Shown: positions 11,251 through 62,640, numbered from the stretch's first letter. The stretch: DNA of 64,000 nt from an uncultured bacterium (GCA_963746775.1 CAVVCK010000001.1:147050-211049); one strand, 5' to 3'. Numbers and translations are program-made. Notes: generated by a model not told the origin, from the sequence alone.

Positions 11251-13194
11251 TTATTTCTTATTATTAAAATACCATTTTAAAATTTCATTAGCTATGGGAG
11301 CTGCTACTTCATTTCCTTCTCCACCTTCTTCTACTAACACCACCAAAACTATCTCCGGATCTTCGAAGGGAGCGTAAGCAGTATACCAGGCATGAGTTTG
11401 GTCACTTCCTCCATGTTGAGCTGTACCAGTTTTACCCGCAGAACTAACAGGTAAATCAGATAATAACCTACCAGAACCAGATAGCACCGTTTCTCTCATT
11501 GCCCTTTGAACCTGATTTATATATTTATTATCAATAAAATTTTCACGAATAACATTTTTCTTATTTTCAAAGATAACATTTTTATCCTGGTCAATACCTT
11601 CTTTCACAAGGTATGGCCTTAGAACTTGCCCACCGTTAGCTACAGTCGATGTCCATGATAAAACTTGCAGAGGTGTTGTTAATAAATCTCCTTGTCCGAT
11701 TGAAATATGATAAGTATCACCTAAATACCATTCTTCCCCTTTTACTTCTTGCTTCCAAGCAGGAGTAGGTATTAATCCTTCTGCTTCAGATGGTAAATCA
11801 ATACCCGTTTTTGCCCCCAGTCCAAATTTTCTAAAATACTGAATTATCTTATCAGCGCCTAGCCCCTTAAAATCCTCATAACCTCCACCTACATAATAAA
11901 AATAAATATCAGACGACTTTGCTATAGCAGAATATACATTCATGGGGCCGAGGCCAGATTTTTCCCAACCCACAAAATGATAAACCGTACTGGCATCATA
12001 CATATTAGTTACATCTATAGAACCATTATCTGTTATAGTAGTATTTTCATTAATAACACCTTCCTGAAGTCCAGCAGAAGCCATAACAGGCTTAATTGTA
12101 GAACCTGGTGGATAAATACCATTAACAGCTCTATTGTACAAAGGTTTATCTGGATCATTTAAAAATTTGTTATAATCTTCTAATTTTATTCCTTTTGAAA
12201 AAAGATTATCATCATATGAAGGAATATTGACGAAACTTAATATTTCACCAGTTTTAGGATTCATAGCAATGCATACTCCCTTTTTAGCTTTTGCTTTATT
12301 TAAACCTTCTTCCAAAAGCCTTCTTGATTCAAGCTGTAAATCTTTATCAATTGTTAAAATTAAATCTTGTCCTTCAGCTGCATCTTCTTTAGCAACAGTT
12401 TTTCTAACATTACCAACAGAATCAACTTCAACTTGTTTTTTACCTTTTGTCCCTTTTAGATTATTTTCATATTTTTTCTCTACCCCTTCTTTGCCTATAT
12501 AATCAATAGCTTGATAATCATTATTAGATTCTTCTAATTCTTCCTGACTTATTTTCCCTATATAACCCAAAATATGTGCAAATTCTTCTGGATATAGATA
12601 ATCACGAATTGGATTTTTCTCAATTTTTATACCTATGAAATTATCAAGTTTTGCTTCCATAATCAAAGCTTCATCTCTTACTAAATTTTTTTTCACTAAA
12701 ACAGGCTCATAAGAATCATTGTTAGTTTCATTTAAAAAAATATCTTTCTCTTCATCATCCAAACTAATTATTTTATTTATATCATTTAACATATTACTTT
12801 TCCCTTCAAAATTTTTTGGTAAATCTGCTGGAATAACTACTAGATCGAAAGCTGGAATATTCTTGACCAATAAATTGTTATTTCTATCATAAATAACTCC
12901 TCGCGGAGCACTTAAATTATATATTCTATAACGATTTTCTTCAGCCGCAGATCTTAAATTATCACCTGACATGATCTGTAAATAGAATACCCTACTCCAA
13001 ACTATTGTAAAAATAATGAAGATAACAAAATAAACCCACTTAAATTTTTTATAATCAAAGAGTGGTTTTACTGTTCTAGGCCTAAAGGGACCAGAATCTA
13101 CTAGAGTTTCTTCCCATTCGTATCCTTCGTTCCCTTTTTTATTCTTTTTTTCAATATGACCTATTTCCGGAATTATAAAAGGATTTTTCTCCAT
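11251..13194 (-). CDS. mrdA: Penicillin-binding protein 2 (class B transpeptidase)
   Basis: N-terminal membrane anchor. Transpeptidase motifs STIKP (SxxK), SSD (SxN-like) and KTGTA. Located downstream of mreBCD. Confidence 0.85.
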   Translation of the reverse strand: MEKNPFIIPEIGHIEKKNKKGNEGYEWEETLVDSGPFRPRTVKPLFDYKKFKWVYFVIFIIFTIVWSRVFYLQIMSGDNLRSAAEENRYRIYNLSAPRGVIYDRNNNLLVKNIPAFDLVVIPADLPKNFEGKSNMLNDINKIISLDDEEKDIFLNETNNDSYEPVLVKKNLVRDEALIMEAKLDNFIGIKIEKNPIRDYLYPEEFAHILGYIGKISQEELEESNNDYQAIDYIGKEGVEKKYENNLKGTKGKKQVEVDSVGNVRKTVAKEDAAEGQDLILTIDKDLQLESRRLLEEGLNKAKAKKGVCIAMNPKTGEILSFVNIPSYDDNLFSKGIKLEDYNKFLNDPDKPLYNRAVNGIYPPGSTIKPVMASAGLQEGVINENTTITDNGSIDVTNMYDASTVYHFVGWEKSGLGPMNVYSAIAKSSDIYFYYVGGGYEDFKGLGADKIIQYFRKFGLGAKTGIDLPSEAEGLIPTPAWKQEVKGEEWYLGDTYHISIGQGDLLTTPLQVLSWTSTVANGGQVLRPYLVKEGIDQDKNVIFENKKNVIRENFIDNKYINQVQRAMRETVLSGSGRLLSDLPVSSAGKTGTAQHGGSDQTHAWYTAYAPFEDPEIVLVVLVEEGGEGNEVAAPIANEILKWYFNNKK

Positions 13195-13722
13195 TTAAGT
13201 TTTCGCTTTTATTCTATCATTATATCGTATAGAAAAATCACGAAAGAAATTTACAAATCTATAAAATAGAAACATTAGTATAATATTTAATACTATACCT
13301 CCTAAAATTTTATACCATAAAGGTTGTAAATATCCTACAAATTTCAAATCAACAAATTTAAGAATAAAAAATATTAAAAATATAAGTAAATAATAAAATA
13401 AAGTAGCTAGTGTAATTATACCAATTCTAGTATAAATATTGTTCATATCAACAAAATGAGAAATTATTAAATAAATTATTATCATAGTAATGATTAAACT
13501 TATCATATTAATTCCAAAAAAAGTACTTGAAAATAAATCTAGCAAAAATCCTCCCAAAACTGCACCATACAATCCATTTTTATAATTTTTTAGAATGCAC
13601 CAACTAATCACAAAAACTAGCATTAAATTTGGTACAGAGCCTAATAATTCAAAATGAGGCAGGAAAGAAGCCTGCAATATAGCTAATAACGAAATTAGAA
13701 GTGTTAATAAAAATAAAACCAT
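13195..13722 (-). CDS. mreD: Rod shape-determining protein MreD
   Basis: 175-aa polytopic membrane protein lying between mreC and pbp2. Assigned by operon position and hydrophobicity. Confidence 0.6.
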   Translation of the reverse strand: MVLFLLTLLISLLAILQASFLPHFELLGSVPNLMLVFVISWCILKNYKNGLYGAVLGGFLLDLFSSTFFGINMISLIITMIIIYLIISHFVDMNNIYTRIGIITLATLFYYLLIFLIFFILKFVDLKFVGYLQPLWYKILGGIVLNIILMFLFYRFVNFFRDFSIRYNDRIKAKT

Positions 13723-13729
13723 TAAATTT

Positions 13730-14563
13730 TTAATTTTTTGCTACAAAGACATAATCTAAATCTTTAAAATCAACTGGAGATTTAATTCTGGCATTTTGAA
13801 ACAATTCATTGTCTCCGCTATCTATTTCCTCTATTTCTCCTATTAATAAATCAAATGACTTTTTTTCTAAATCTGCAGTTGTCACTATATCTCCCTTTTT
13901 TATTACTTTATCTTGTGGAATTAGTTCCATGATCAGTCCTAGTCCATGTTCACCCGATACTATACCATCGGCATTAGAATCTTTTATATGTGCTTGCACA
14001 TGACTATATATATCACTAATTAATAAAACAGATGAATAATTATCATACACATCCTTAATTTTACCAATTAATATACCGTCTGAGACTATCACAAATTGAT
14101 CTTTTTCAACTTCATCTTTTGACCCCTTATTAATATTAATAGTATTGGATAAATTATTTGAATCTCTGCTAATTACTTTAGCTGGAATTAAATCAAGAGA
14201 TGATTTTTGTTTGAATGATAATTGATCTCTTAAATCATTATTTTCCTTTTCAAGCTCTTCTAATTTAGCCCTATCTACTAAAGATTTTTGCAAATCCGAC
14301 CTAATAGTTTTATTCTCTTTTGCTAAATCTCTAATAGACCCTAAAAAACCAAAAAAACCAGATATATATTCTCCTGTACTAAAAAAAACACTTTTTACTG
14401 GTACTAAAATTTTTAGTAATAAATTTTCAACTGGATTCAATATTCCAATAAAATGAAAAGTAATCAATAAAAATACTATTACTAAAGACACTAAAAACAA
14501 AAATTTTTTATTTTGTGATAGTTTAAGCATATAAAACAAAATTTTAATTAACAATTTCAACAA
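13730..14563 (-). CDS. mreC: Rod shape-determining protein MreC
   Basis: N-terminal transmembrane helix, coiled-coil (LEELEKENNDLRDQL), C-terminal beta domain; lies directly downstream of mreB. Confidence 0.7.
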   Translation of the reverse strand: MLKLLIKILFYMLKLSQNKKFLFLVSLVIVFLLITFHFIGILNPVENLLLKILVPVKSVFFSTGEYISGFFGFLGSIRDLAKENKTIRSDLQKSLVDRAKLEELEKENNDLRDQLSFKQKSSLDLIPAKVISRDSNNLSNTININKGSKDEVEKDQFVIVSDGILIGKIKDVYDNYSSVLLISDIYSHVQAHIKDSNADGIVSGEHGLGLIMELIPQDKVIKKGDIVTTADLEKKSFDLLIGEIEEIDSGDNELFQNARIKSPVDFKDLDYVFVAKN

Positions 14564-14662: not shown

Positions 14663-15742
14663 TTATTTTCGTCTTATAAATCTTGTTCGAGGAGGTTTAT
14701 GATATTGTGTAGTCATTAAAACTTCTTTTAAAGTCTCTAGATCTTCTAAAACAATACCACACCCTCTGACAACGCAAGTTAGAGAATCATCAGCTACACT
14801 GGCAGGCATTTTTGTTTTTTCGGTAATTAACTTGTCTAATCCTCTTAATAATGACCCTCCTCCAGCCAGAATAATACCTCTTTTCATAATATCTGATACT
14901 AATTCTGGTGGTGTTTCTTCAATAGCTATTTTAATTTCATTAACAATAGTTCTAACAGATCGAGCGAGTGCTTCCTGAGCCTGTCCATTATTAATTCTAA
15001 CTTCTTTTGGTAAACCTGACACTAAATCTCTACCTCTCATAGAAGTCTCCAGTGTTTTATATAGAGGATAAGCAGATCCAATAGCAATTTTAATTTCTTC
15101 AGCAGTCTTTTCTCCTATTACTAAATTAAATTCTGAACGTGCGTATTGAATAATATCTTCATTCATCTCATCTCCGGCAATCCTTAAAGATTTAAAGATA
15201 ACTACTCCTCCTAAAGATATTACCGCTACTTCTGTAGTACCTCCACCAATATCAACAATCATACATCCAGAAGGGCTCTGAATAGGCAATCTAGCGCCAA
15301 TAGCGGCTGCCATAGGTTCTTCAATCAAGAATGCTTGCCTGGCTCCAGCATTTATAGCAGCATCTTCAACAGCTCTCTTTTCTACTTCTGTTACACCAGA
15401 AGGAATACCAATAACTACACGAGGTCTAGGAAATAAGGTAAAAGCTTCTTGATGAACTTTTTCAAAAAAATATTTTAACATTTGCTCAGTTATTTCAAAT
15501 TCTGAAACAACTCCATCAACCAATGGACGAGAAGCTACAATATGTGATGGAGTTTTACCTACCATTCGTTTAGCTTCATTACCAATAGCTAATATCTGAC
15601 CAGTATTTTTGTTCAAGGCGACCACAGAAGGTTCATTAATGACTATACCCTTACCTTTTACATACACCAAAGTATTGGCAGTCCCCAGATCAATCCCAAT
15701 ATCTTTTGAAAAACTACCTAATATATTATTTATAATAGACAT
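14663..15742 (-). CDS. mreB: Rod shape-determining actin homologue MreB
   Basis: IGIDLGTANTLVYVKGKGIVINEPSVVA and the DIGGGTTEVAVISLGG phosphate-binding motifs; 359 aa. Confidence 0.9.
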   Translation of the reverse strand: MSIINNILGSFSKDIGIDLGTANTLVYVKGKGIVINEPSVVALNKNTGQILAIGNEAKRMVGKTPSHIVASRPLVDGVVSEFEITEQMLKYFFEKVHQEAFTLFPRPRVVIGIPSGVTEVEKRAVEDAAINAGARQAFLIEEPMAAAIGARLPIQSPSGCMIVDIGGGTTEVAVISLGGVVIFKSLRIAGDEMNEDIIQYARSEFNLVIGEKTAEEIKIAIGSAYPLYKTLETSMRGRDLVSGLPKEVRINNGQAQEALARSVRTIVNEIKIAIEETPPELVSDIMKRGIILAGGGSLLRGLDKLITEKTKMPASVADDSLTCVVRGCGIVLEDLETLKEVLMTTQYHKPPRTRFIRRK

Positions 15743-21989: not shown

Positions 21990-22997
21990 TTATTTTTTCA
22001 ATAATATATTTCTTTTATATGAGTCTAAATTCTCAATTGCAATACCTGCTCCCTTACCAACACATAATAAAGGATCCTCCGCTACATAAGTAGATACTCC
22101 GGTAGCTTTAGTAATTAATTTATCAAGATTAGTAATTAAAGCTCCACCACCAGTTAATACTATGCCTTTTTCTATAACATCAGATGCTAGCTCTGGGGGT
22201 GTTTCTTGCAATACCTCTTTTATAACTTGAATAATTTCACGCAATGGATCTTGAATTGCTTCATTAACTTCATTGGAATTAATGGTAATCATTTTAGGTA
22301 AACCGGTCACCATGTCACGACCTTTAATCTCCATTAATTTTGGTTCATTATAGGGCAATGCTGTACCAATATTAATTTTTATTCTTTCAGATGTTCTATC
22401 ACCTACTGCCAAACCATGTTTTTTTCTAATATAATCAGCTATAGCTGTATCAATTTTATTACCAGCCATTCTAGCAGAACTAGCTGTCACAATACCCCCT
22501 AAAGATATAACACCCACTTCTGTAGTACCACCACCAATGTCAATAACCATATGACCACTTGATTGAGCGATAGGTATACCAGCTCCAATAGCAGCTGCTA
22601 GGGGCTCTTTTATTAAATAAGCTGCCTTAGCCCCTGCTTGAATAGTAGCATCAATAACCGCCCTTCGTTCGGTACTAGTAATACCAGCCGGAACAGAAAC
22701 CATAACTTCAGGCCTAAAAATTCTTAAATTACCAATAGCCTTACTAATAAAGTAATGAAGCATTGCTTCTGTAATTCTATAATCTGCAATAACACCATCT
22801 CTCATCGGACAAGAAGCTACGATGCTATCTGGAGTTCTGCCTAACATCCCTTTGGCTTCATCACCTACAGCCAGGATTGAATTATCATCGAGAGAGATTG
22901 CTACGACTGAAGGTTCATTAATAACTATGCCCTTCTTTGAAGCATAAACTAAAGTATTTGCAGTTCCCAAATCGATAGCTATTTTTTTTATAAACAT
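21990..22997 (-). CDS. Second MreB-like actin homologue (paralog)
   Basis: IAIDLGTANTLVYASKKGIVINEPSVVA and DIGGGTTEVGVISLGG motifs; 335 aa; separate from the mreBCD operon. Confidence 0.8.
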   Translation of the reverse strand: MFIKKIAIDLGTANTLVYASKKGIVINEPSVVAISLDDNSILAVGDEAKGMLGRTPDSIVASCPMRDGVIADYRITEAMLHYFISKAIGNLRIFRPEVMVSVPAGITSTERRAVIDATIQAGAKAAYLIKEPLAAAIGAGIPIAQSSGHMVIDIGGGTTEVGVISLGGIVTASSARMAGNKIDTAIADYIRKKHGLAVGDRTSERIKINIGTALPYNEPKLMEIKGRDMVTGLPKMITINSNEVNEAIQDPLREIIQVIKEVLQETPPELASDVIEKGIVLTGGGALITNLDKLITKATGVSTYVAEDPLLCVGKGAGIAIENLDSYKRNILLKK

Positions 22998-42517: not shown

Positions 42518-44113
42518 TTAATCAATTTTAACAACATTTCCTGGATTAAGATTTTTGTTTATAGGTTTTTTTGTTTTATTATTAAGTTGATTCGGTTTTG
42601 AATTTTTTGAAGATTGATTATTATTATTTCTTTTATCCTCATTTGAATTACTATTCTGGCCTTCTTTCTTTTTCTGGCTCATTAAATCACCTAATAATTT
42701 TTTAAATGGTTGATGATATTCTTCTGATTTACTTTCATTTTTAGATTGATTCCTATTATTACCTCCTCTATATCCTTGTTTGTTGTTCTTCTCATTCACA
42801 GGTAAATCAATATCATCATTCATGCCACTCCAGCGAGCAATTTTCTCTTCTACTATCTCTCGCTTTTTAGCATATCTCTCTCTTGAAACTTTTATAATTT
42901 TTTCTCTGTTACCTTCCTCTTTCCACTCAGGGGGAACAGTACTCGCAGAAAAAGCTTGGCTAGCTACTCCATTTATCATTAATTTCAAATAAATATTATA
43001 TTTAGATAAATTAACTAAATCATTCTCCTCAAAAACAGGTTCAAATTCCTTAGCTAAAAATTCTGAATCCGTACCTCCAATTCTGAAAGTAACTATCGTT
43101 CCTACATTTCCAAAAACGGCATCACGAACTTTAGTACTACCGCCTATTTCAAGCTGACCAATATATTGATGAGCCATAATTAAATCTAGACGATATTTTC
43201 TGGCTTCTGATAAAATATCAGCAAAACTATCAGTGGCAAAATTTTGAAATTCATCAACATATAAATAAAAATCAGCTCGCTCTTCCTCAGGAATATCCAC
43301 CCGTGACATAGCCGCTAATTGCAAATGGGTTACCATCATAGCTCCAAATAAGGCTGAGGCATCTTCTCCGATTCTTCCTTTGGCCAAATTTAAAATTAAA
43401 ATTTTCTTATTATCCATCACTTCTCTAACATTAATGGTAGATTTGGGTTGTCCAACAATATTGCGTATTAGTGAAATAGATAAAAATTGACCAATTTTAT
43501 TTTGAATAGGAGCAATCGCCTCACTGGCAAATTTATCCGGATACTTGGAAAATTCTTCCACCCAAAAAGCTTTAACAATTGGATCTTTAACTTGAGTAAT
43601 AACTTTATTTCTAAATTTTTGATCAGTTAACATCCTCATCGTTCCAAGTAAAGTACTGCCCTGATAATCCAGCAAAGCCAAAATAGTATTTCTTAAAACA
43701 TATTCTAAACGAGGTCCCCAGCTATCTGCCCAAATCTTTTTAAAAACCCCCACCAGACCAGAGGAAATCAAATGTTTATATTCTGGATTATCATTTTCCA
43801 TGACATTAAAAGCAATCGGCCAATCAGCATCACCCGGATTAAAATAAATTACATCGTTAACCCTACTATTTGGTACATAATTAAGCATTTTATCGGCAAA
43901 TTCACCATGAGGATCTACAATACAAAAACCATTGCCATTATTAATATCCGAAATAACTAATTGCTCCATTAAAGTAGTTTTACCCATACCAGTCTTACCA
44001 ACAATATACATATGGCGTCTGCGATCATCTCTTAGAATACCAAACTTTTTTCTTTGGTTTCTAAAATTAGTTTCAGCAAAAATAGTTATTTGATCGTCTT
44101 GTTTCTTGGGCAT
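42518..44113 (-). CDS. Soluble VirD4/TraG/TrwB-family (type IV coupling protein-like) ATPase with N/K/Q-rich C-terminal tail
   Basis: Walker A HMYIVGKTGMGKTT, followed by CIVDPHGEF..VIYFNPGDADWPIAFNVME (T4CP DPKGE...fNPL pattern). Walker B YLYVDEFQNF, then RKYRLDLIMAHQYIGQL...FGNVGTIVTF (T4CP Q..QL / N motifs). No N-terminal transmembrane helices. The last 120 aa or so are low-complexity. Confidence 0.65.
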   Translation of the reverse strand: MPKKQDDQITIFAETNFRNQRKKFGILRDDRRRHMYIVGKTGMGKTTLMEQLVISDINNGNGFCIVDPHGEFADKMLNYVPNSRVNDVIYFNPGDADWPIAFNVMENDNPEYKHLISSGLVGVFKKIWADSWGPRLEYVLRNTILALLDYQGSTLLGTMRMLTDQKFRNKVITQVKDPIVKAFWVEEFSKYPDKFASEAIAPIQNKIGQFLSISLIRNIVGQPKSTINVREVMDNKKILILNLAKGRIGEDASALFGAMMVTHLQLAAMSRVDIPEEERADFYLYVDEFQNFATDSFADILSEARKYRLDLIMAHQYIGQLEIGGSTKVRDAVFGNVGTIVTFRIGGTDSEFLAKEFEPVFEENDLVNLSKYNIYLKLMINGVASQAFSASTVPPEWKEEGNREKIIKVSRERYAKKREIVEEKIARWSGMNDDIDLPVNEKNNKQGYRGGNNRNQSKNESKSEEYHQPFKKLLGDLMSQKKKEGQNSNSNEDKRNNNNQSSKNSKPNQLNNKTKKPINKNLNPGNVVKID

Positions 44114-44122
44114 AATTATATT

Positions 44123-44164
44123 TTTATGTGAATTACAAAATACCTTTTATATTTTCCGCTTATC
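44123..44164 (-). promoter_or_regulatory. Conserved upstream element, copy B
   Basis: TTTATGTGAATTACAAAA (44123-44140), 10 nt, then ATTTTCCGCTTATC (44151-44164). This is followed by nested UCCGC/GCGGA and AUCCGC/GCGGAU inverted repeats up to about 44215. Confidence 0.4.
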
Positions 44165-44257
44165 CGCAATACTTAAACATATGGATCAAGCGGATTTTGG
44201 CGGATATAACAGATAAATTTCCAATTCGTTATTCGCATCTTTTTAATATTCTATATT

Positions 44258-45562
44258 TCACTCCACTGGCAAATCTACTGGTGGTTCTTTAGTTTTTGCT
44301 TCAGATCTAGAGATAGTCGGAGCTTTAACTGTAATATATGGAAAATGAAAAACAGTAGCAATTTCTTCAATATTTAGAACAAAAGGAGAAGCAACTTGAT
44401 CCATTTCACGACTTTTGTAATTTCTCATCAACCTGCGTTCCCTTCTTGGATTTCTATATTTCTGGAAATACTCAACTTTTGACAAAGATTTTTCATTAAG
44501 CCTAAATCCATTAAGGAATTGATCATTGAAAAGACTAACTGATCCAAAAATAGGAGCCGCTCCTTTGGCTTTATTAAATACTTCTTTGCGAGCTATATAT
44601 ATAAATCTAAATTTAACCTCATATGCAGTCTTAGATAAACTTTTTTCAATAGCTTCTACTACTTTTTGTTCTCCTGGAGATAAATATTGCACCAAGGATG
44701 GTACATCCATTTTACCCTCAGATGATTCCACTTCTTCAAATCCTAGGGTAGATTCTATCCCTTTAAAAAGTCCATGTAATAAACCTACACTAGATCTTAA
44801 TGGTCTCTCAATAAGACCTACTTTTTCTTCAACAGCTTTACCGATTAATTTATTAACTACTTTTTCCCCCTCTTTCTTCCACTGATCACGAATAGGCTTA
44901 ATTATAAATTGAATCCATAATTGTTCTCCTTCTCCAAGCCTTGACATCATTTCTGTTAATACAGATAGTGGATCAATAAATTTATTTTCTTTTTCCCCTA
45001 ATTTATTTTCGAATTCATAATAAGTCTTAATTGGATAAGCATCATCCTTAGCTAAACCAAATTCTAGACCGTACATTTTATATTTATCATTAGGATAATT
45101 ATCTGGAGCAAACTTAGTATAATCTTCTACCTCAGTAATTTCTGCCTCTGGATATTGTGAATAGAGACTTGCTTCAACCAAGTCTCTAAAATAATCAGGT
45201 GTTCTAACAATAAAACGCACATTGCCATTAATACTAACCAATTCTAAGCTTAAATATACCTGCGTCTCTCCTTTAAAATATTTTTCAACAAAATTACGTC
45301 CAGACTCAATACCATAGCAACCAGCTAAAACTTGCTCCATTGCACTTGGATTTTTATCACTCTCAGGTGACACAGTAACAGCTAAATAAATAAATTTAAT
45401 AGATTCTATAAACTTAGCTCGTTTTTTTAGTAACCAAATATAGTAAATTAAGAATAATAAAGGAGGAATGGTAAGCCACCATATCCTTGAGAAAACCCAT
45501 AAAGTTAAGCTCCAAAACTCCAAAAAATACTCTAATTGTTCATAAATAAAAGAGTAATCCAT
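44258..45562 (-). CDS. Hypothetical membrane protein (N-terminal TM hairpin plus ~390-aa soluble domain), partner of the T4CP-like ATPase
   Basis: 434 aa. Hydrophobic segment around aa 15-45 (FLEFWSLTLWVFSRIWWLTIPPLLFLIYYIWLL). No recognised motif. Lies immediately upstream of the ATPase in the same orientation. Confidence 0.4.
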   Translation of the reverse strand: MDYSFIYEQLEYFLEFWSLTLWVFSRIWWLTIPPLLFLIYYIWLLKKRAKFIESIKFIYLAVTVSPESDKNPSAMEQVLAGCYGIESGRNFVEKYFKGETQVYLSLELVSINGNVRFIVRTPDYFRDLVEASLYSQYPEAEITEVEDYTKFAPDNYPNDKYKMYGLEFGLAKDDAYPIKTYYEFENKLGEKENKFIDPLSVLTEMMSRLGEGEQLWIQFIIKPIRDQWKKEGEKVVNKLIGKAVEEKVGLIERPLRSSVGLLHGLFKGIESTLGFEEVESSEGKMDVPSLVQYLSPGEQKVVEAIEKSLSKTAYEVKFRFIYIARKEVFNKAKGAAPIFGSVSLFNDQFLNGFRLNEKSLSKVEYFQKYRNPRRERRLMRNYKSREMDQVASPFVLNIEEIATVFHFPYITVKAPTISRSEAKTKEPPVDLPVE

Positions 45563-45668: not shown

Positions 45669-46805
45669 TTAAGCAATCTGCTGGGCTAATTTATATGTTC
45701 CTTTTTCAACTCTTTGAAATAAATTTTTATCTTGTAGAGTTAAAATTATAGTATTCTCTTTAACCATTCTCTGCTTTAATACTTCTTTTATAATTTTATT
45801 TTTTGATAAGGGTTTGCTTTCATTTTTTAGAACTGAGGCAATAATATCCTTGACAGTACCTTCTTTATAGCCCCATTCTTTCAAAGCATATATACCTCTT
45901 CCAACTAAAATAAAACGAGAATCTTTAATCAACTCATTATGAACAGTTTGCATATTAGCCTGTCTTTTAGAAAATCCTTTATTGTTGATCATTTCTGTAA
46001 TTTTTCTAAAATGTAGTGGTTTTCCATTTTTCTTCAATACAATATAAGCCCTATCTCTAACACCACGAGGCATAATTTCATTCCAATGATTTAGGCCCCA
46101 TTCATTATAAGGATTCTTCTGAATTTTTTTACTTAAATTAAGATAAGATAGTAATGCCTTATTGTTACCCAATAGTTCCATTTCTTCAACCAAATCACTA
46201 TTTTTTGAGATTAGCTCTGTAAATTTATCTTCAGAAAATGGTTTATTTTCTTTCTCTAGTACCCTAATTGCAGAATTAATAATTTTCTCAGCCATTTTTA
46301 TATCAGAATTTTTTAATCCCCAAGCTTTTTTAAGCCTATCATTTTCTTTAAAATCTATAAATCTATCACTCAATTTTAAAATAAATTCAACTAAATTTCC
46401 ATGAGCTTTTTCATGTTGTAACTTTTCAACGCATTTACCTACCAAATCATTATGACTCATCAATTCACCATGTTTTGATAATAGTTCTTCCAAAGAATCT
46501 TCTAAAAGTTTAATATGACCGGCTGCTTTAAATTTTTTAAGTTCAGATAGAGTAGAAGATTCTATTTGTCTTACTCTCTCTCTAGTAATTCCATATTCTT
46601 TTCCGATTTCTTCTAATGTTTTTTTCTTACCACCATCAAGTCCAAAACGTTTTATAATAATATCTCTGCTTCTTTTTTGTGATAATTCATCTAATAATTT
46701 ATATATCAAATCAGCCGGACTTAAGCCGGAAAAATTACACTCCTGATTATTATTATATTGTATATTCTTTAAATTTTCTGTCATTTTATATAATCTTTTA
46801 TACAC
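45669..46805 (-). CDS. DNA-binding protein with an N-proximal sigma-70 region-4-like HTH and a C-terminal HARE-HTH-like winged helix
   Basis: aa 55-100: DIIIKRFGLDGGKKKTLEEIGKEYGITRERVRQIESSTLSELKKF (sigma region 4.2 pattern). aa 235-300: RDRAYIVLKKNGKPLHFRKI...SRFILVGRGIYALKEWGY (HARE-HTH pattern). No sigma region 2. Confidence 0.55.
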   Translation of the reverse strand: MYKRLYKMTENLKNIQYNNNQECNFSGLSPADLIYKLLDELSQKRSRDIIIKRFGLDGGKKKTLEEIGKEYGITRERVRQIESSTLSELKKFKAAGHIKLLEDSLEELLSKHGELMSHNDLVGKCVEKLQHEKAHGNLVEFILKLSDRFIDFKENDRLKKAWGLKNSDIKMAEKIINSAIRVLEKENKPFSEDKFTELISKNSDLVEEMELLGNNKALLSYLNLSKKIQKNPYNEWGLNHWNEIMPRGVRDRAYIVLKKNGKPLHFRKITEMINNKGFSKRQANMQTVHNELIKDSRFILVGRGIYALKEWGYKEGTVKDIIASVLKNESKPLSKNKIIKEVLKQRMVKENTIILTLQDKNLFQRVEKGTYKLAQQIA

Positions 46806-46915: not shown

Positions 46916-47221
46916 TTATATTTTATCAATATATTGCTTTATTCTGGCGTCTTCTCGCTTAACTACTTCACTTTCTTCATCTTCATAACACCTAATACCT
47001 TTAGTATGCATAGGCCGCCTGGCATCAAAATGAAGATCTATTATAAGTATGTTTTCCTGATTATAATGACAGTTAATATGAAATCTGGGATAAAAAGATG
47101 CTCCCATTCTTCTTATAAAACTTTCCTTGCCACTTCTTGGATCACGCCAAGGTTTATATCCTAGACGGCGCATTAATACGGTTGGATTCTGATTAAATTT
47201 TTTACTTACTTTTATTTGCAT
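46916..47221 (-). CDS. Hypothetical protein (101 aa)
   Basis: An ORF with good coding periodicity, arranged in tandem with the two upstream genes. No motif recognised. Confidence 0.35.
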   Translation of the reverse strand: MQIKVSKKFNQNPTVLMRRLGYKPWRDPRSGKESFIRRMGASFYPRFHINCHYNQENILIIDLHFDARRPMHTKGIRCYEDEESEVVKREDARIKQYIDKI

Positions 47222-47225
47222 TATT

Positions 47226-47534
47226 TTAATATTTAGCTGATTCTTTTTTAATTTCTTCTTTTAATTTCGCACGTATAGTATCATCTATCTGATCAGGCAG
47301 CATGTCTCCTTCGGGATTATGAATTGTTGCTTCTTCGTAAATTTTACCATCTATTTTTCTTGCTTCGTCTTTTATCTCTGCTTTTGCCTCATCATTTATC
47401 TCGACTTTTCCATCTTTATTAAAAAAATCAGCCAGCTCTAGCGAGGCATTATTTTTAAGCCAAAATCCTCCCACAACTGCTAGTCCCAATAAAATTAATA
47501 AAATAGCTATAAATGAATAGAGTAATACTTTCAT
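47226..47534 (-). CDS. Small membrane protein (N-terminal TM helix, acidic and basic C-terminal tail)
   Basis: 102 aa; 4-nt overlap with the upstream methylthiotransferase gene. Confidence 0.35.
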   Translation of the reverse strand: MKVLLYSFIAILLILLGLAVVGGFWLKNNASLELADFFNKDGKVEINDEAKAEIKDEARKIDGKIYEEATIHNPEGDMLPDQIDDTIRAKLKEEIKKESAKY

Positions 47535-50885: not shown

Positions 50886-51524
50886 TTATTTCTTCTTTTT
50901 TGTTTTTGCTTTTTTCTTGGCAGCCGGTTTTTTCTTAACAACTTTCTTAGCTGCAAGTCCTTTAGTTTCAGCTTTATTAACTTTTTCTGATTTCTTTTCC
51001 ACTTTAATCTCTTTGTTCTGCTTTGGTTGGTTAGCTTTAGATGCAGGTACAGCTACATTGATAGATAATAGCTTTAATACTTTATCAAGCTTTTCATTTA
51101 GCATTTTAAACTGCTTGCTTGATTCTTCTCCAGTATTACTATTTCTATTTCTATCATCTCTTCTACCACCTCTTCTATCGCTTTTATCATTTTTACCATC
51201 AAAACATTTACTACAATAAATAGGTTTACCACTGGTTGGTTTAAAAGGTACTTCACAATTTTGACCACATTCATCACAGACAGCACTAAACATAGCAGTT
51301 CTTCTTGAGTCTCTTCCACCAAAATCACGTCTGCCGAATCCTCTGTCATCTCTTCTATTACTTCTTTTATCATCTCCGCCTTTACTTTTGAAACAGTCGC
51401 TACAATAAATTGGTTTGCCGCCACTTGGTCTAAAGGGTACTTCACAATCTCTGCCACATTCATCACAGACTGCATGATGCATTTGCGGCCTATCTGATCG
51501 GTTATTACGATTAAAATTTCCCAT
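50886..51524 (-). CDS. Tandem zinc-ribbon protein with lysine-rich histone-H1-like C-terminal tail
   Basis: Two repeats of CDECG..CEVPF.P..GKPIYCS.CF; R/D-rich linkers; C-terminus AAKKVVKKKPAAKKKAKTKKKK. Confidence 0.5.
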   Translation of the reverse strand: MGNFNRNNRSDRPQMHHAVCDECGRDCEVPFRPSGGKPIYCSDCFKSKGGDDKRSNRRDDRGFGRRDFGGRDSRRTAMFSAVCDECGQNCEVPFKPTSGKPIYCSKCFDGKNDKSDRRGGRRDDRNRNSNTGEESSKQFKMLNEKLDKVLKLLSINVAVPASKANQPKQNKEIKVEKKSEKVNKAETKGLAAKKVVKKKPAAKKKAKTKKKK

Positions 51525-59762: not shown

Positions 59763-60056
59763 GGGAATTTATTTAAATTATATCAAAGTAAAGTGAATCT
59801 GCTAGATAAAAATTATCTATTTTTTGTTTATTTTTAGGCAAAATAACCATTTTAACTTGACATTTACCCCTAAATTATGCTTGACTTTTTTGTACGGTGT
59901 TTTACAGTATAAGTGAAAAGTTGTTTAGACTTTTATTTTGAAAGATGCATATATATTTCAATTTTAAATGAATTGAAATGTAGAATGTTCCTTCAAAACT
60001 TTTTTCTGAAACACAACAACAATTCCTCTTTTAAAAGAGGGGTAGGGAGATTTACT

Positions 60057-61400
60057 ATGGAACCCAAGGTTGGCGATATCATCAATAATAAGTATGAACT
60101 GATCAGGGAACTTGGCAGCGGAAGTATGGGAGTGGTATTCCTGGCCATCCACCAGCTCTTGAGGGCTCGTGTGGCCATCAAGTTCATCAATTCAGAGTTG
60201 GTACAGAATAAGGAGGCTAGGAGACGCTTCCTTTTGGAAGCACAAATCGGGGCAGAGATTAAACACCCCGGAGTAGTGTCTGTTTCAGACATCGAGGCAA
60301 ATGGGTACATCTTCATTGTGATGGAGTACCTCGAAGGCAGGGGTCTCGATAAAATTATTAATGAAAAAGGCTGTATTGTTGAAATTGAGTTTGCTATTGA
60401 TGTAACGATACAAATCCTGCGTGCACTCCTTGTGGTGCACGAAAAAGGGATTATCCATCGTGATCTCAAACCGGAAAACATCTTCATCACAGAAGGTGGT
60501 GAAGTCAAAATTATGGATTTCGGGATCGCCAAGGCTAGATCGGCAGCCCTCGCCACTACACATGAGCTGACCAGCGTTGGGACAATCAATGGGACCCCCC
60601 ATTATATGTCCCCGGAACAGTGCTGCGGTTCAAAGAGCATCAACCATCAAACCGATATCTGGTCGGTAGGCATCATGCTCTACGAGATGCTTACGGGGTG
60701 TTTCCCCTACATAGGGGACACTTCTAGCGATATTATAAATAGAATCCTTGACGGGGGAACCAATCCCCCTAAGGCTCTAAATCCGACTATTTCAGAAGGA
60801 CTCGAAAGAGTCATTCTGAAGGCAATGGAACCGGTACCGCAAAAACGGTACCAGAGTGCCAAGGAGTTCTTGGTCGACCTCGAGAGTCTTGAAGAACATC
60901 CTGCCTATACACCTCCTCCTCCGACGCCTACGACCACCGTACACGAGGCCGAAACGGTTATCGTGCAAAAGGTCGACGACTCAGAACCAAAAAAAAAGCA
61001 CTGGAGACTTCCTGTGACAATCGCTATCGCCGTTCTGATCATCGGTGCTTTCACGGGATGGTTCATCTCTCAACCTCAACCTTCTACTGAACCTCAAGTC
61101 ACTGATCCAACTCCAACGAAAGTTGTTGAATCTACACCCGTCGCTCAAGCTCAAGCTGAACCGGAACCACCCGCTCCGCCTGAGAAAGCTACACCTCCGC
61201 CTGAACCCGAACCTCAGCCAAGCGCCGAAGCAACAGCCGAACCCACCAAGCGCGCCCCACCTCCCCGACCAGCAAAGCAGGCCACTCCCGAGCCTCGCCG
61301 CCCTCACCCCACTGTCGAAGAGGAGCCACCACCCATCATAGTGGTTCCGCAAAGGCCACCTACTCCTCCCCCCATCATCGTTCTTTCTCAAAGAAGGTAG
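60057..61400 (+). CDS. Hanks-type Ser/Thr protein kinase with TM helix and Pro-rich C-terminal extracellular tail
   Basis: GSGSMGVV (Gly loop), VAIKFI (Lys), HRDLKPENIFI, DFGIAKA, GTPHYMSPE; TM WRLPVTIAIAVLIIGAFTGWFI; P/E/T-rich tail. Start taken at ATG 60057 (RBS aGAGGGGtaGGGAG) rather than the ORF-track ATG 59913, which adds 48 AT-rich codons. Confidence 0.85.
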   Translation: MEPKVGDIINNKYELIRELGSGSMGVVFLAIHQLLRARVAIKFINSELVQNKEARRRFLLEAQIGAEIKHPGVVSVSDIEANGYIFIVMEYLEGRGLDKIINEKGCIVEIEFAIDVTIQILRALLVVHEKGIIHRDLKPENIFITEGGEVKIMDFGIAKARSAALATTHELTSVGTINGTPHYMSPEQCCGSKSINHQTDIWSVGIMLYEMLTGCFPYIGDTSSDIINRILDGGTNPPKALNPTISEGLERVILKAMEPVPQKRYQSAKEFLVDLESLEEHPAYTPPPPTPTTTVHEAETVIVQKVDDSEPKKKHWRLPVTIAIAVLIIGAFTGWFISQPQPSTEPQVTDPTPTKVVESTPVAQAQAEPEPPAPPEKATPPPEPEPQPSAEATAEPTKRAPPPRPAKQATPEPRRPHPTVEEEPPPIIVVPQRPPTPPPIIVLSQRR

Positions 61401-61422
61401 ACTAGAGATCCTTCTAGTCTAC
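61397..61422. repeat. 9-bp perfect inverted repeat overlapping the kinase stop codon
   Basis: GTAGACTAG-agatcctt-CTAGTCTAC; not followed by a T-tract. Confidence 0.4.
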
Positions 61423-61497
61423 CAAACCCCTTCAATTACAACTTTAAATATACCCGCCTCTGACGGCGGACAGATAAAATTTACACAAACAAAAAAG

Positions 61498-61532
61498 AGA
61501 CTAAGCAAAATTACAGCTTAGTCTTTTTTTTA
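61498..61532. terminator. Rho-independent terminator between the convergent island genes
   Basis: aaaaaagAGACTAAG-caaaattacag-CTTAGTCT-TTTTTTTT. Confidence 0.6.
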
Positions 61533-61601
61533 TTCTTTTAAATTTTAATTATATATAGAAAGTAATAATAATAAAGGGAAGCCGTGTGTGCGAAAACGCG
61601 G

Positions 61602-62426
61602 CTAAAAGGTGAGAAAGAGCGGTGAGGCGATGGCGAGGGGCTCCCAGTTGGAGGAGGAGTCCTCGCCTTCGGCGTGGGGTGAAGCGCGAGCGCTTCTTCT
61701 TAACCGGTAGGTCTCAACTATCAGTAGGATTGCTCCCACTGCAGCAATACCTAACCCGATAAAGAAACTCGCATCGCCCAAGTCTTGTCGCCAAGACAAA
61801 TGCGACGGATCCTCCTGGAAGCGAACATATTCCGCGATCCAGGAAGGAATACCCACGCCCACCATCCCGGCAAGCCCGATTCCGAGAAGCCCCCACCCTG
61901 CAGGCCAAAAACGGGTATGAGAAGGTGGAGGAGTGGGGAGGTAGGGGGGAGTCCCACTAAACTGAACAGGAGGAGGAATGGGCTCCTCCTCTTCAACCGG
62001 CTCAGGAGAAGTTACGCACTCCTCCTCCAAAGCCTGGATACGTCCTTGGAGATATTCCCTTAAGAACATATCCTCTGCCACCACCCTCACAAGGTCCTCA
62101 GGAGAAAAACCCTCCAAAGCCTCTTGATAAAGAGGAATGGCTTCACACCTCCTTTCTTCCCCGGCCAGCTCCAAACAAGCCGCCTGGTACTGGCGAAGAG
62201 TGGCAAGATTATTCGCCTCACCATCCCCACAAATATCAGCTGCCTCTTGGAGCGACTGGAGGACCCCCTCGATCCTCGAAGGATCCCGACAGTCAACCGG
62301 CACCTGGCCGGCCAGTCGTCGAACCTCGCTCGAAGAACAAGGATTCCTTTCCTCCTCGGCCAAAATGGCCGAGGAATTAAAGAGAACAAAAATAACCGCG
62401 AAAATAACATGCGAAATACGTTCCAT
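61602..62426 (-). CDS. Secreted Cys-containing protein with Pro-rich linker and two C-terminal TM helices (hypothetical)
   Basis: Start taken at MERISHVIFAVIFVLFNSSAILA (signal peptide), which is preceded by AAGGAGGAAGGGACA. The ORF-track start at 62474 adds 16 aa without an RBS. Region with 5 or more Cys; PPVQFSGTPPYLPTPPPS linker; TM helices GWGLLGIGLAGMVGVGI and FFIGLGIAAVGAILLIV. Confidence 0.5.
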   Translation of the reverse strand: MERISHVIFAVIFVLFNSSAILAEEERNPCSSSEVRRLAGQVPVDCRDPSRIEGVLQSLQEAADICGDGEANNLATLRQYQAACLELAGEERRCEAIPLYQEALEGFSPEDLVRVVAEDMFLREYLQGRIQALEEECVTSPEPVEEEEPIPPPVQFSGTPPYLPTPPPSHTRFWPAGWGLLGIGLAGMVGVGIPSWIAEYVRFQEDPSHLSWRQDLGDASFFIGLGIAAVGAILLIVETYRLRRSARASPHAEGEDSSSNWEPLAIASPLFLTF

Positions 62427-62640
62427 TGTCCCTTCCTCCTTGAAATTAGGGCACAATTGCCCAAAAGGGATCAATTTATAATATATATAAATAGTGATTA
62501 TGTCAAGTTTTTTTGATTTTTATTGTTTATATGATCTTTATATATATATTTATTTATAAGAAAATAATAATTAGGTATTTATCCATATTTAGACTATAAA
62601 TACACCCTTTTTTTATAAAAAAATTTATAGAAATAAAAAT

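Follow-up and report, generated by a model that had tools for sequence, protein, structure and literature searches.

A split type IV coupling protein as the probable product of a conserved chromosomal gene pair of Patescibacteria

How might a coupling-protein-like ATPase operate when it carries no membrane anchor of its own and no conjugation genes surround it? This question is raised by two adjacent genes in a 64,000-nucleotide (nt) stretch of DNA from an uncultured bacterium (GCA_963746775.1 CAVVCK010000001.1:147050-211049; the whole stretch is referred to here as the window). One gene (42518..44113) encodes an ATPase of 531 amino acids (aa), and the gene upstream of it (44258..45562) encodes a membrane protein of 434 aa. 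Both genes, with all of their features given below, are on the minus strand. A preliminary description of the window had suggested that the two products form a split type IV coupling protein (T4CP), with the anchor supplied by the upstream gene. Both open reading frames (ORFs) have the positions and lengths reported there, and all of the motifs quoted are present in the order described. We conclude that the gene pair very probably represents one T4CP divided into two polypeptides, an anchor and an ATPase, because the assignments by profiles and fold, the existence of collinear fused proteins, and the conservation of the pair with short spacers all support this reading.

Assignment of the ATPase

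On the basis of its sequence, the 531-aa protein is assigned to the VirD4/TrwB-type T4CP ATPases, of which it would be the motor half. Its nucleotide-binding domain is of the FtsK/HerA superfamily, both Walker motifs (A and B) are intact, and hidden Markov model (HMM) searches matched it to T4CP profiles above the Pfam cut-offs (TrwB_AAD_bind, 50.9 bits versus 20.5; TraG-D_C, 25.4 bits versus 22). DUF87 was also above its cut-off, and no AAA_10 match was obtained. The TrwB_AAD_bind match spans profile positions 13 to 311 of 387. T4SS-DNA_transf was matched in one ortholog, P0162 (27.4 bits; cut-off, 20.1). The only solved relatives found by sequence were TrwB, which was the best (E = 1.8e-8), and DotL. 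The set of features expected of FtsK/SpoIIIE proteins (an N terminus with four transmembrane [TM] segments, an alpha/beta motor, a gamma domain, and a match to the FtsK_SpoIIIE profile) was not found.

The Walker A motif located by motif scan (GKTGMGKT, residues 39 to 46; 43976..43999) has six of eight residues invariant and one more conserved at ≥90% among 24 orthologs. It is followed by the motifs CIVDPHGEF (residues 64 to 72) and FNPGDADWPIAFNV (residues 91 to 104) and then by three motifs whose columns are invariant among orthologs, i.e., Walker B (FYLYVDEF, residues 282 to 289; 43247..43270), AHQY (residues 314 to 317, within AHQYIGQL at 314 to 321; 43163-43174), and FGNVGT (residues 334 to 339, within FGNVGTIV at 334 to 341; 43097-43114). 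An all-alpha insertion (approximately residues 110 to 235; 43409..43786) between Walker A and Walker B was delimited from the AlphaFold model and the TrwB_AAD_bind match. Only helices were modeled at residues 110 to 234 (predicted local distance difference test [pLDDT], approximately 75 to 95), and the insertion is predicted from this model to correspond to the all-alpha domain of T4CPs. No hydrophobic segment was detected in the 531-aa protein, in which Walker A already starts at residue 39; the lack of an N-terminal anchor noted in the preliminary description was thus borne out.

The ATPase ends in a low-complexity tail (residues 431 to 531; 42521..42823), defined by composition and alignment, with PGNVVKID at its C terminus. 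The tail had been described as N/K/Q rich and 120 aa long; its N/K-rich, low-complexity character holds (N, 23%; K, 17%), and its length is 101 aa. Among orthologs, the tail is variable. A CxxC-x17-CxxC treble-clef zinc ribbon is present in 36 of 57 orthologs, with zf_Tbcl_2 confirmed in the tail of P0162, and ortholog tails often end in PG(Q/E)V(I/V)KF. The window protein retains HQPFKK, a cysteine-less remnant of the ribbon of most orthologs. Elsewhere in the window, a stand-alone 212-aa protein (50886..51524, minus strand) contains two zf_Tbcl_2 (CxxC-x17-CxxC) ribbons, RGG/RD-rich spacers, and a lysine-rich tail. This protein might supply in trans the module that is degenerate in the window ATPase.

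The DUF8128 partner

The upstream protein, which would represent the membrane anchor and N-terminal half, is labeled DUF8128 (PF26449) in the precomputed Pfam record for exactly this protein and for nearly all of its listed homologs. Our local Pfam and NCBIfam scans, in which the Pfam copy did not include the DUF8128 model, yielded no match. A hydrophobic membrane segment of approximately 32 residues (residues 14 to 45; 45428..45523) was identified by Kyte-Doolittle analysis, with residues 27 to 45 scoring 1.81 (i.e., clear TM strength) and residues 19 to 42 scoring 1.6, and 23 of 24 homologs have a comparable stretch. Since this stretch precedes KKRAK, the large C-terminal domain should be cytoplasmic. 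AlphaFold placed helices at residues 4 to 26 and 28 to 54. The safe reading of these predictions is at least one TM segment with a cytoplasmic C-terminal domain, and a TM hairpin is possible. Of the N-terminal TM hairpin in the preliminary description, the hydrophobic stretch was recovered, with one clear TM segment at residues 27 to 45, and the hairpin itself was not established.

The soluble domain had been described as unrecognized. It is the DUF8128 domain, a predicted cytoplasmic alpha/beta domain (residues 56 to 412; 44327..45397) with a fold like that of the VirB4 N-terminal domain (NTD). The top 13 Foldseek matches of the protein were all TrwK chains. Only this fold comparison gave a lead, as a search of PDB sequences with the DUF8128 profile produced no match, and scans of 24 DUF8128 members at E ≤ 1 yielded scattered noise only. 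Invariant motifs in the domain include YxQYPEAEI and YPI(K/R)TY. The protein ends in a conserved, disordered C-terminal tail (EEIATVFHFP...VKAP...EPPVDLPVE; 44261..44371), in which E400, A402, H406, P408, P415, P428, L431, and P432 are invariant; pLDDT is <50 at residues 413 to 434. This tail is presumed to be a docking peptide because the linker leads directly into the ATPase in the fused relatives described below.

Fused homologs

A tblastn search of plasmids with the ATPase returned 387 records, mostly from Streptomyces, Bacillus, Staphylococcus, Clostridium, haloarchaea, and Sulfolobus (including pNOB8). Judged by sequence, these matches belong to the T4CP world of monoderms and archaea. 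In an Embleya plasmid (NZ_CP108778.1), the region homologous to the ATPase forms the C-terminal half of a protein of 812 aa (WP_331738717.1) that matches T4SS-DNA_transf, TrwB_AAD_bind, and TraG-D_C. The gene order is PrgI, a VirB4-type ATPase (matching P-loop_TraG, AAA_10, and TraC_F_IV), the fused T4CP, Replic_Relax, and NlpC/P60, and the fused protein is collinear with the DUF8128 profile over 307 columns (E = 0.0027). In a Bacillus subtilis plasmid (NZ_OX419581.1), the ATPase homolog is the C-terminal part of a 913-aa protein (WP_144625398.1), the N-terminal half of which aligns with the DUF8128 profile (hhalign probability, 96.6; E = 5.6e-10); its gene is followed by a replication-relaxation protein gene and by TcpD, TcpE, and ATPase genes. 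Given the adjoining Replic_Relax and VirB4/PrgI/Tcp genes, these plasmid homologs are in bona fide conjugation contexts. An 854-aa fused protein was also found in Magasanikbacteria (MFQZ01000010.1; hhalign probability, 99.7; E = 1.5e-26; TrwB_AAD_bind at residues 431 to 778).

When fused proteins were compared with the window by tblastn, the alignments ran through both genes (E = 3.5e-35 and 2e-59). The landmark LV(E/R)xA(I/V)xAx(Y/W)P is present in the fused and split forms, and a shared linker, (E)ELAx(L/V)xH(F/L)P...AP...PPxx(L/I)P, leads into the N-terminal strands of the ATPase in the Embleya, Bacillus, and Magasanikbacteria proteins. Both halves of the fused proteins are therefore homologous to the window pair in the same order, linker included. 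Unlike the window pair, they are single polypeptides, and they are only 22 to 30% identical to the window ATPase. When the first 330 aa of the B. subtilis protein served as the query, a homolog search returned zero matches, the query protein itself included, and the best 150 matches of an exhaustive DUF8128 profile search were all stand-alone proteins, with no fused form.

Some genomes carry a second, more divergent DUF8128-T4CP copy in addition to the split pair (L056:17926-20490, minus strand; L042:1833-4004; L052:339-2498), approximately 44 to 46% identical to the window ATPase and 24 to 26% identical in the N-terminal half. The ORF state was established for L056 alone, where the second copy is a single fused ORF that adjoins dnaX; the stand-alone DUF8128 gene of L056 is without its adjacent ATPase. 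Such second copies fit the approximately two T4CP homologs per genome given in a recent survey (Quinonero-Coronel et al. 2025; PMC12102498). The closest relative outside Patescibacteria (39.5% identity) is on a Sulfitobacter mediterraneus plasmid (NZ_CP081110.1, 99994-101181). It is a lone 395-aa ATPase beside transposases, without a tail or a DUF8128 partner, which says nothing on function and may reflect horizontal transfer out of Patescibacteria.

Conservation across Patescibacteria

Both window genes have thousands of homologs, which indicates that they are real genes and not chance ORFs; the DUF8128 family alone comprises 3,666 representatives at 50% identity. We surveyed 20-kb neighborhoods of 80 loci from species-representative genomes. 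The ATPase gene follows the DUF8128 gene on the same strand in 60 of the 80 loci, or in 54 of the 67 loci with enough downstream sequence. Neither a confident assignment of the ATPase to a non-T4CP family nor a lack of conservation of the pair was found. The spacers in these 60 loci are mostly −4 to +10 nt (median, approximately 5 nt), and such overlapping or few-nucleotide spacers suggest translational coupling. The window spacer is 144 nt (44114..44257) and contains no terminator-like hairpin on the coding strand. Genes recurring near the pair in related loci include secA, secD, secF, mnmA, and alaS. No T4SS genes were found in any of the 80 neighborhoods (within approximately 10 kb); linkage to a relaxase/VirB4 T4SS was found only for the fused plasmid homologs.

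Within the same genomes, identity was 65% for the ATPase core, 42% for MnmA, 39% for AlaS, and 38% for DUF8128. The ATPase core is under stronger purifying selection than the adjacent core translation enzymes. T4CPs are generally poorly conserved (PMC7434980), and an identity of 65% is unusual for them. The preliminary description had presented the pair as an orphan module. It is not peculiar to this genome; our survey indicates a phylum-wide, vertically inherited chromosomal core locus among housekeeping genes, and orphan T4CPs of Patescibacteria had already been described (PMC12102498).

That study reports 5,713 VirD4-like homologs, spread over 2,918 of the 3,035 genomes of Patescibacteria, with only 148 homologs near virB4. 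VirB4, which is described there as a monophyletic group of its own in Patescibacteria, was detected in 2,417 of those genomes (80% versus 96% for T4CP homologs). Exaptation of the orphan homologs is raised as a possibility, and the available text does not mention a membrane partner for them (PMC12102498).

Upstream of the pair in the window is a gene (45669..46805, minus strand) for an RNA polymerase delta-like protein with Sigma70_r4 and HARE-HTH domains, as detected with Pfam and NCBIfam models (NCBIfam RNA polymerase delta, 54.5 bits; cut-off, 42). Among the 72 loci with room, 47 have this gene directly upstream of DUF8128. We regard it as context only; its membership in the machine would be conjecture. 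A similar arrangement exists in "Candidatus Southlakia epibionticum" ML1, where the essential, Patescibacteria-enriched Sigma70_r4+HARE-HTH gene SEML1_0294 is directly upstream of SEML1_0293 (Wang et al. 2023). SEML1_0293 encodes 921 aa, with TrwB_AAD_bind at residues 402 to 719 and a Pfam trio of PF10412, PF12696, and PF01935; its family is core and Patescibacteria enriched, and the gene is nonessential in coculture, with reads dropping from 5817 to 1372 over the time course (Wang et al. 2023). SEML1_0293 thus shares the Pfam trio and the upstream gene with the window locus, but it is a single chain in which the ATPase starts at approximately residue 400. Judged on synteny and architecture, it is likely the fused counterpart of the window pair. 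The essential genes of Southlakia include those for a separate FtsK and for a second T4CP-like protein, SEML1_0142 (Wang et al. 2023). A role of the pair as an FtsK substitute was rejected because that role is already filled by the separate, essential FtsK.

Proposed mechanism and alternative explanations

The pair is probably a split, domesticated T4CP that acts as a nucleic-acid translocase. In the mechanism that we propose, the DUF8128 protein would supply the membrane segment and a cytoplasmic VirB4-NTD-like domain, and the downstream protein would contribute a nucleotide-binding domain of the VirD4/TrwB type together with the all-alpha domain and a basic tail that varies and often has a zinc ribbon. 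The conserved disordered C-terminal tail of the anchor would dock on a conserved N-terminal beta-hairpin of the ATPase and tether a TrwB-like ATPase hexamer to the membrane. Powered by ATP, the hexamer would then transport or pass on a polymer, most probably a nucleic acid such as DNA; the treble-clef ribbon in the basic tail of most orthologs is a hint of such a substrate. It would most probably work with the relaxase-less chromosomal type IV secretion system (T4SS) encoded elsewhere in most Patescibacteria, for which CedD and the unlinked Ced system provide a model. We consider a split T4CP working as a nucleic-acid motor with an unlinked T4SS to be the best explanation overall and a likely one. 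The specific combination of a nucleic-acid substrate and T4SS coupling is put forward more tentatively. A role in DNA uptake or translocation, which the preliminary description had raised, is likewise one that we infer.

Several observations weigh against this explanation. The NCBIfam T4CP models (TraD, CD1115 VirD4-like, and CedD) all scored far under their cut-offs, the best being SXT_TraD (43.6 bits versus 366), and the match to CedD was weak and at the P-loop level (27.6 bits versus 600). Fold alone cannot distinguish the ATPase as a T4CP from a VirB4 C-terminal domain or DptH, and its AlphaFold model is poor at residues 319 to 393. Approximately 13 of 67 loci keep DUF8128 without an adjacent ATPase. 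No T4SS is present in the 64-kb window, where tblastn detected no homologs of VirB4, PrgI/VirB3, the Replic_Relax relaxase, or Tcp proteins and type IV prepilin leader motifs were absent from all six frames (no specific search was made for VirB2-type small pilins), consistent with the report of no relaxase, VirB4, or pilin genes in the preliminary description. T4CP homologs are reported in at least 501 more genomes than VirB4 (2,918 versus 2,417; PMC12102498), which argues against strict T4SS dependence. Finally, SEML1_0293, the likely counterpart, is nonessential, whereas the Southlakia T4SS is essential (Wang et al. 2023).

Three facts lend some weight to a possible T4SS-independent role: T4CP homologs are more widely distributed than VirB4, SEML1_0293 is dispensable in a cell whose T4SS is essential, and the ATPase is extremely conserved. 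The same split motor would then be a housekeeping nucleic-acid translocase that pulls DNA through ComEC in place of the ComFA of Firmicutes or acts alone at the membrane. The lack of linkage to T4SS genes in all 80 neighborhoods and the basic tails, often with a zinc ribbon, are also consistent with such a motor. In Southlakia, "ComFA" is not in the gene tables and comFC (K02242) is listed, competence is reported as ComEC dependent, and SEML1_0293 and competence are both dispensable. However, the locus showed no genomic linkage to comEC or to any other competence gene, canonical T4CPs require a channel partner, and the absence of ComFA is common outside Firmicutes and thus weak evidence. We consider this alternative unlikely.

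Could the pair instead be a split VirB4, i.e., a T4SS assembly ATPase rather than a coupling protein? The VirB4-like fold of the N-terminal half raises the question, but AAA_10, P-loop_TraG, TraC_F_IV, and CagE_TrbE_VirB match neither window protein nor any of the 24 DUF8128 members, and VirB4 models do match the separate VirB4 next to the Embleya fused homolog. An hhalign comparison of DUF8128 with that Embleya VirB4 found nothing (E = 0.41), which indicates that the VirB4-NTD likeness of DUF8128 is structural only. Each of the two plasmids has a relaxase-type gene next to the fused homolog and, in addition, a separate VirB4-type ATPase, and Patescibacteria have their own monophyletic VirB4. 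A split VirB4 is therefore very improbable.

Another candidate was a HerA-, DptH-, or MADS-like ATPase that, together with a membrane partner, would defend against phages; the HerA-like version had been suggested in the preliminary description. Against defense models, the ATPase gave P-loop-level HerA matches only, plus mad8 at 54.9 bits, and it has a fold likeness to DptH. The HAS-barrel N-terminal domain, linked partner, and patchy distribution characteristic of HerA/DptH systems were not found. A core locus with fixed housekeeping synteny and 65% identity is the opposite of patchy defense islands; NurA, Sir2, DptF/G, methylase, or other effector or partner genes are not nearby; PADLOC returned no match for the DUF8128 protein; and the fused homologs are in conjugation clusters. 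The suggestion of a defense ATPase is abandoned on these grounds as highly implausible. Least credible of all is the reading of the pair as the decaying remains of an integrated conjugative element (ICE), since, although the family is typical of plasmids and ICEs and no T4SS or relaxase is adjacent, the G+C content (approximately 0.30) is that of the genome background, the catalytic motifs are all intact under strong purifying selection, and the gene order is constant across diverse Patescibacteria with no integrase, transposase, or tRNA boundary near the pair.

Genomic context

The window is AT rich (G+C content, approximately 30%), and nearly all of its genes are on one strand. Apart from the pair, its ORFs are housekeeping genes (mur, mre, ribosomal, aminoacyl-tRNA synthetase, and chaperone genes). 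Downstream of the ATPase gene are mnmA (NCBIfam, 417.8 bits) and a 71-aa coiled-coil ORF, both of which had been reported in the preliminary description, followed by alaS and ftsA. A promoter scan was uninformative, with promoter-like sites no more frequent than chance alone would give.

Two small ORFs (101 and 102 aa; 46916..47534, minus strand) without a family match lie between an MtaB-like gene and the Sigma70_r4+HARE-HTH gene, and the shorter one (101 aa) is found again in a few related loci (L001, L005, and L055). Elsewhere, the window contains two MreB-like genes (14663..15742 and 21990..22997, minus strand) and a region with mreC, mreD, and a PBP2-type transpeptidase gene (11251..14563); the full rod-shape machinery is kept despite genome reduction (the genome is apparently approximately 547 kb).

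A GC-rich island (59,950-62,450; G+C content, 0.44 to 0.62 versus a background of approximately 0.30) is located between hrcA and groEL. It contains genes for a Ser/Thr protein kinase whose tail is proline rich (59913..61400, plus strand; Pkinase, 184.8 bits) and for a 290-aa proline-rich membrane protein without a Pfam match (61602..62474, minus strand). It probably represents foreign DNA, a segment that varies between strains, or a chimera. An independent Logan contig (run ERR11571143) is 100% identical over the left junction of the island and ends at window position 60268. A truncation of groEL by the island was considered and proved wrong, as groEL simply extends past the window end.

Significance

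The existence of orphan T4CP homologs in Patescibacteria was already known (PMC12102498). As far as the literature shows, four points are new: the identification of DUF8128 as the detached, VirB4-NTD-like N-terminal half of a T4CP; the fused forms in conjugative plasmids and in Patescibacteria; the few-nucleotide spacers; and an ATPase core more conserved than neighboring housekeeping enzymes. The first of these would give a role to a domain of unknown function with 3,666 clusters at 50% identity. A T4CP lineage with a VirB4-type NTD would also be an evolutionary tie between two T4SS ATPase families.

Patescibacteria represent a large share of bacterial diversity and obtain nucleotides from host cells, and their exchange of macromolecules with hosts is little understood. 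A doubtful version of the T4SS-independent alternative is that the split unit is a Patescibacteria-wide housekeeping motor that could draw host DNA or RNA, via ComEC or an unknown channel, into cells unable to make nucleotides. If true, this would explain both why the ATPase core is conserved above aminoacyl-tRNA synthetases and tRNA-modification enzymes and why the unit is present in more genomes than VirB4.

Comparison with known systems

Both halves of the proposed split T4CP resemble VirB4 (TrwK of R388; PDB 7o42) in fold. Unlike VirB4, DUF8128 has no sequence-level similarity to VirB4 NTD models, and the ATPase groups with T4CP models. Compared with the T4CPs of the VirD4/TrwB family (TrwB of R388, PDB 1e9r; DotL; Cagbeta), the window ATPase lacks a TM domain in cis, whereas TrwB lacks the VirB4-NTD-like domain of approximately 350 aa carried by the separate N-terminal half in the window. 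The window locus further differs from those of VirD4/TrwB T4CPs in being chromosomal, core, unlinked to a relaxase or T4SS, and far more conserved (65% identity) than usual.

CedD and TedD provide a parallel in genomic setting. The chromosomal VirD4-like CedD is needed for the Ced system to import DNA and is unlinked in Sulfolobales (PMC11823120). Like the window ATPase, CedD/TedD are chromosomal T4CP homologs; in Sulfolobales, the gene is apart from the other genes of the system, and some orthologs lack a TM domain; they serve a domesticated, relaxase-less T4SS-like machine (PMC11823120). The likeness does not extend to the profile level, as noted above for the NCBIfam CedD model, or to a described DUF8128-type partner, and import is shown for CedD and conjectured for the window pair.

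In arrangement, the pair can be compared with TraJ/TraI of pIP501 and the R27-type TraG-TraJ pairs, two-gene units whose coupling ATPase is soluble or weakly anchored and depends on a membrane protein encoded next to it (PMC7434980). Unlike the DUF8128 protein, those partners are described as small membrane proteins (approximately 200 aa), and they belong to plasmid-borne conjugation systems. T4CPs that lack a TM segment and have their membrane partner on another polypeptide form an accepted subfamily (PMC7434980).

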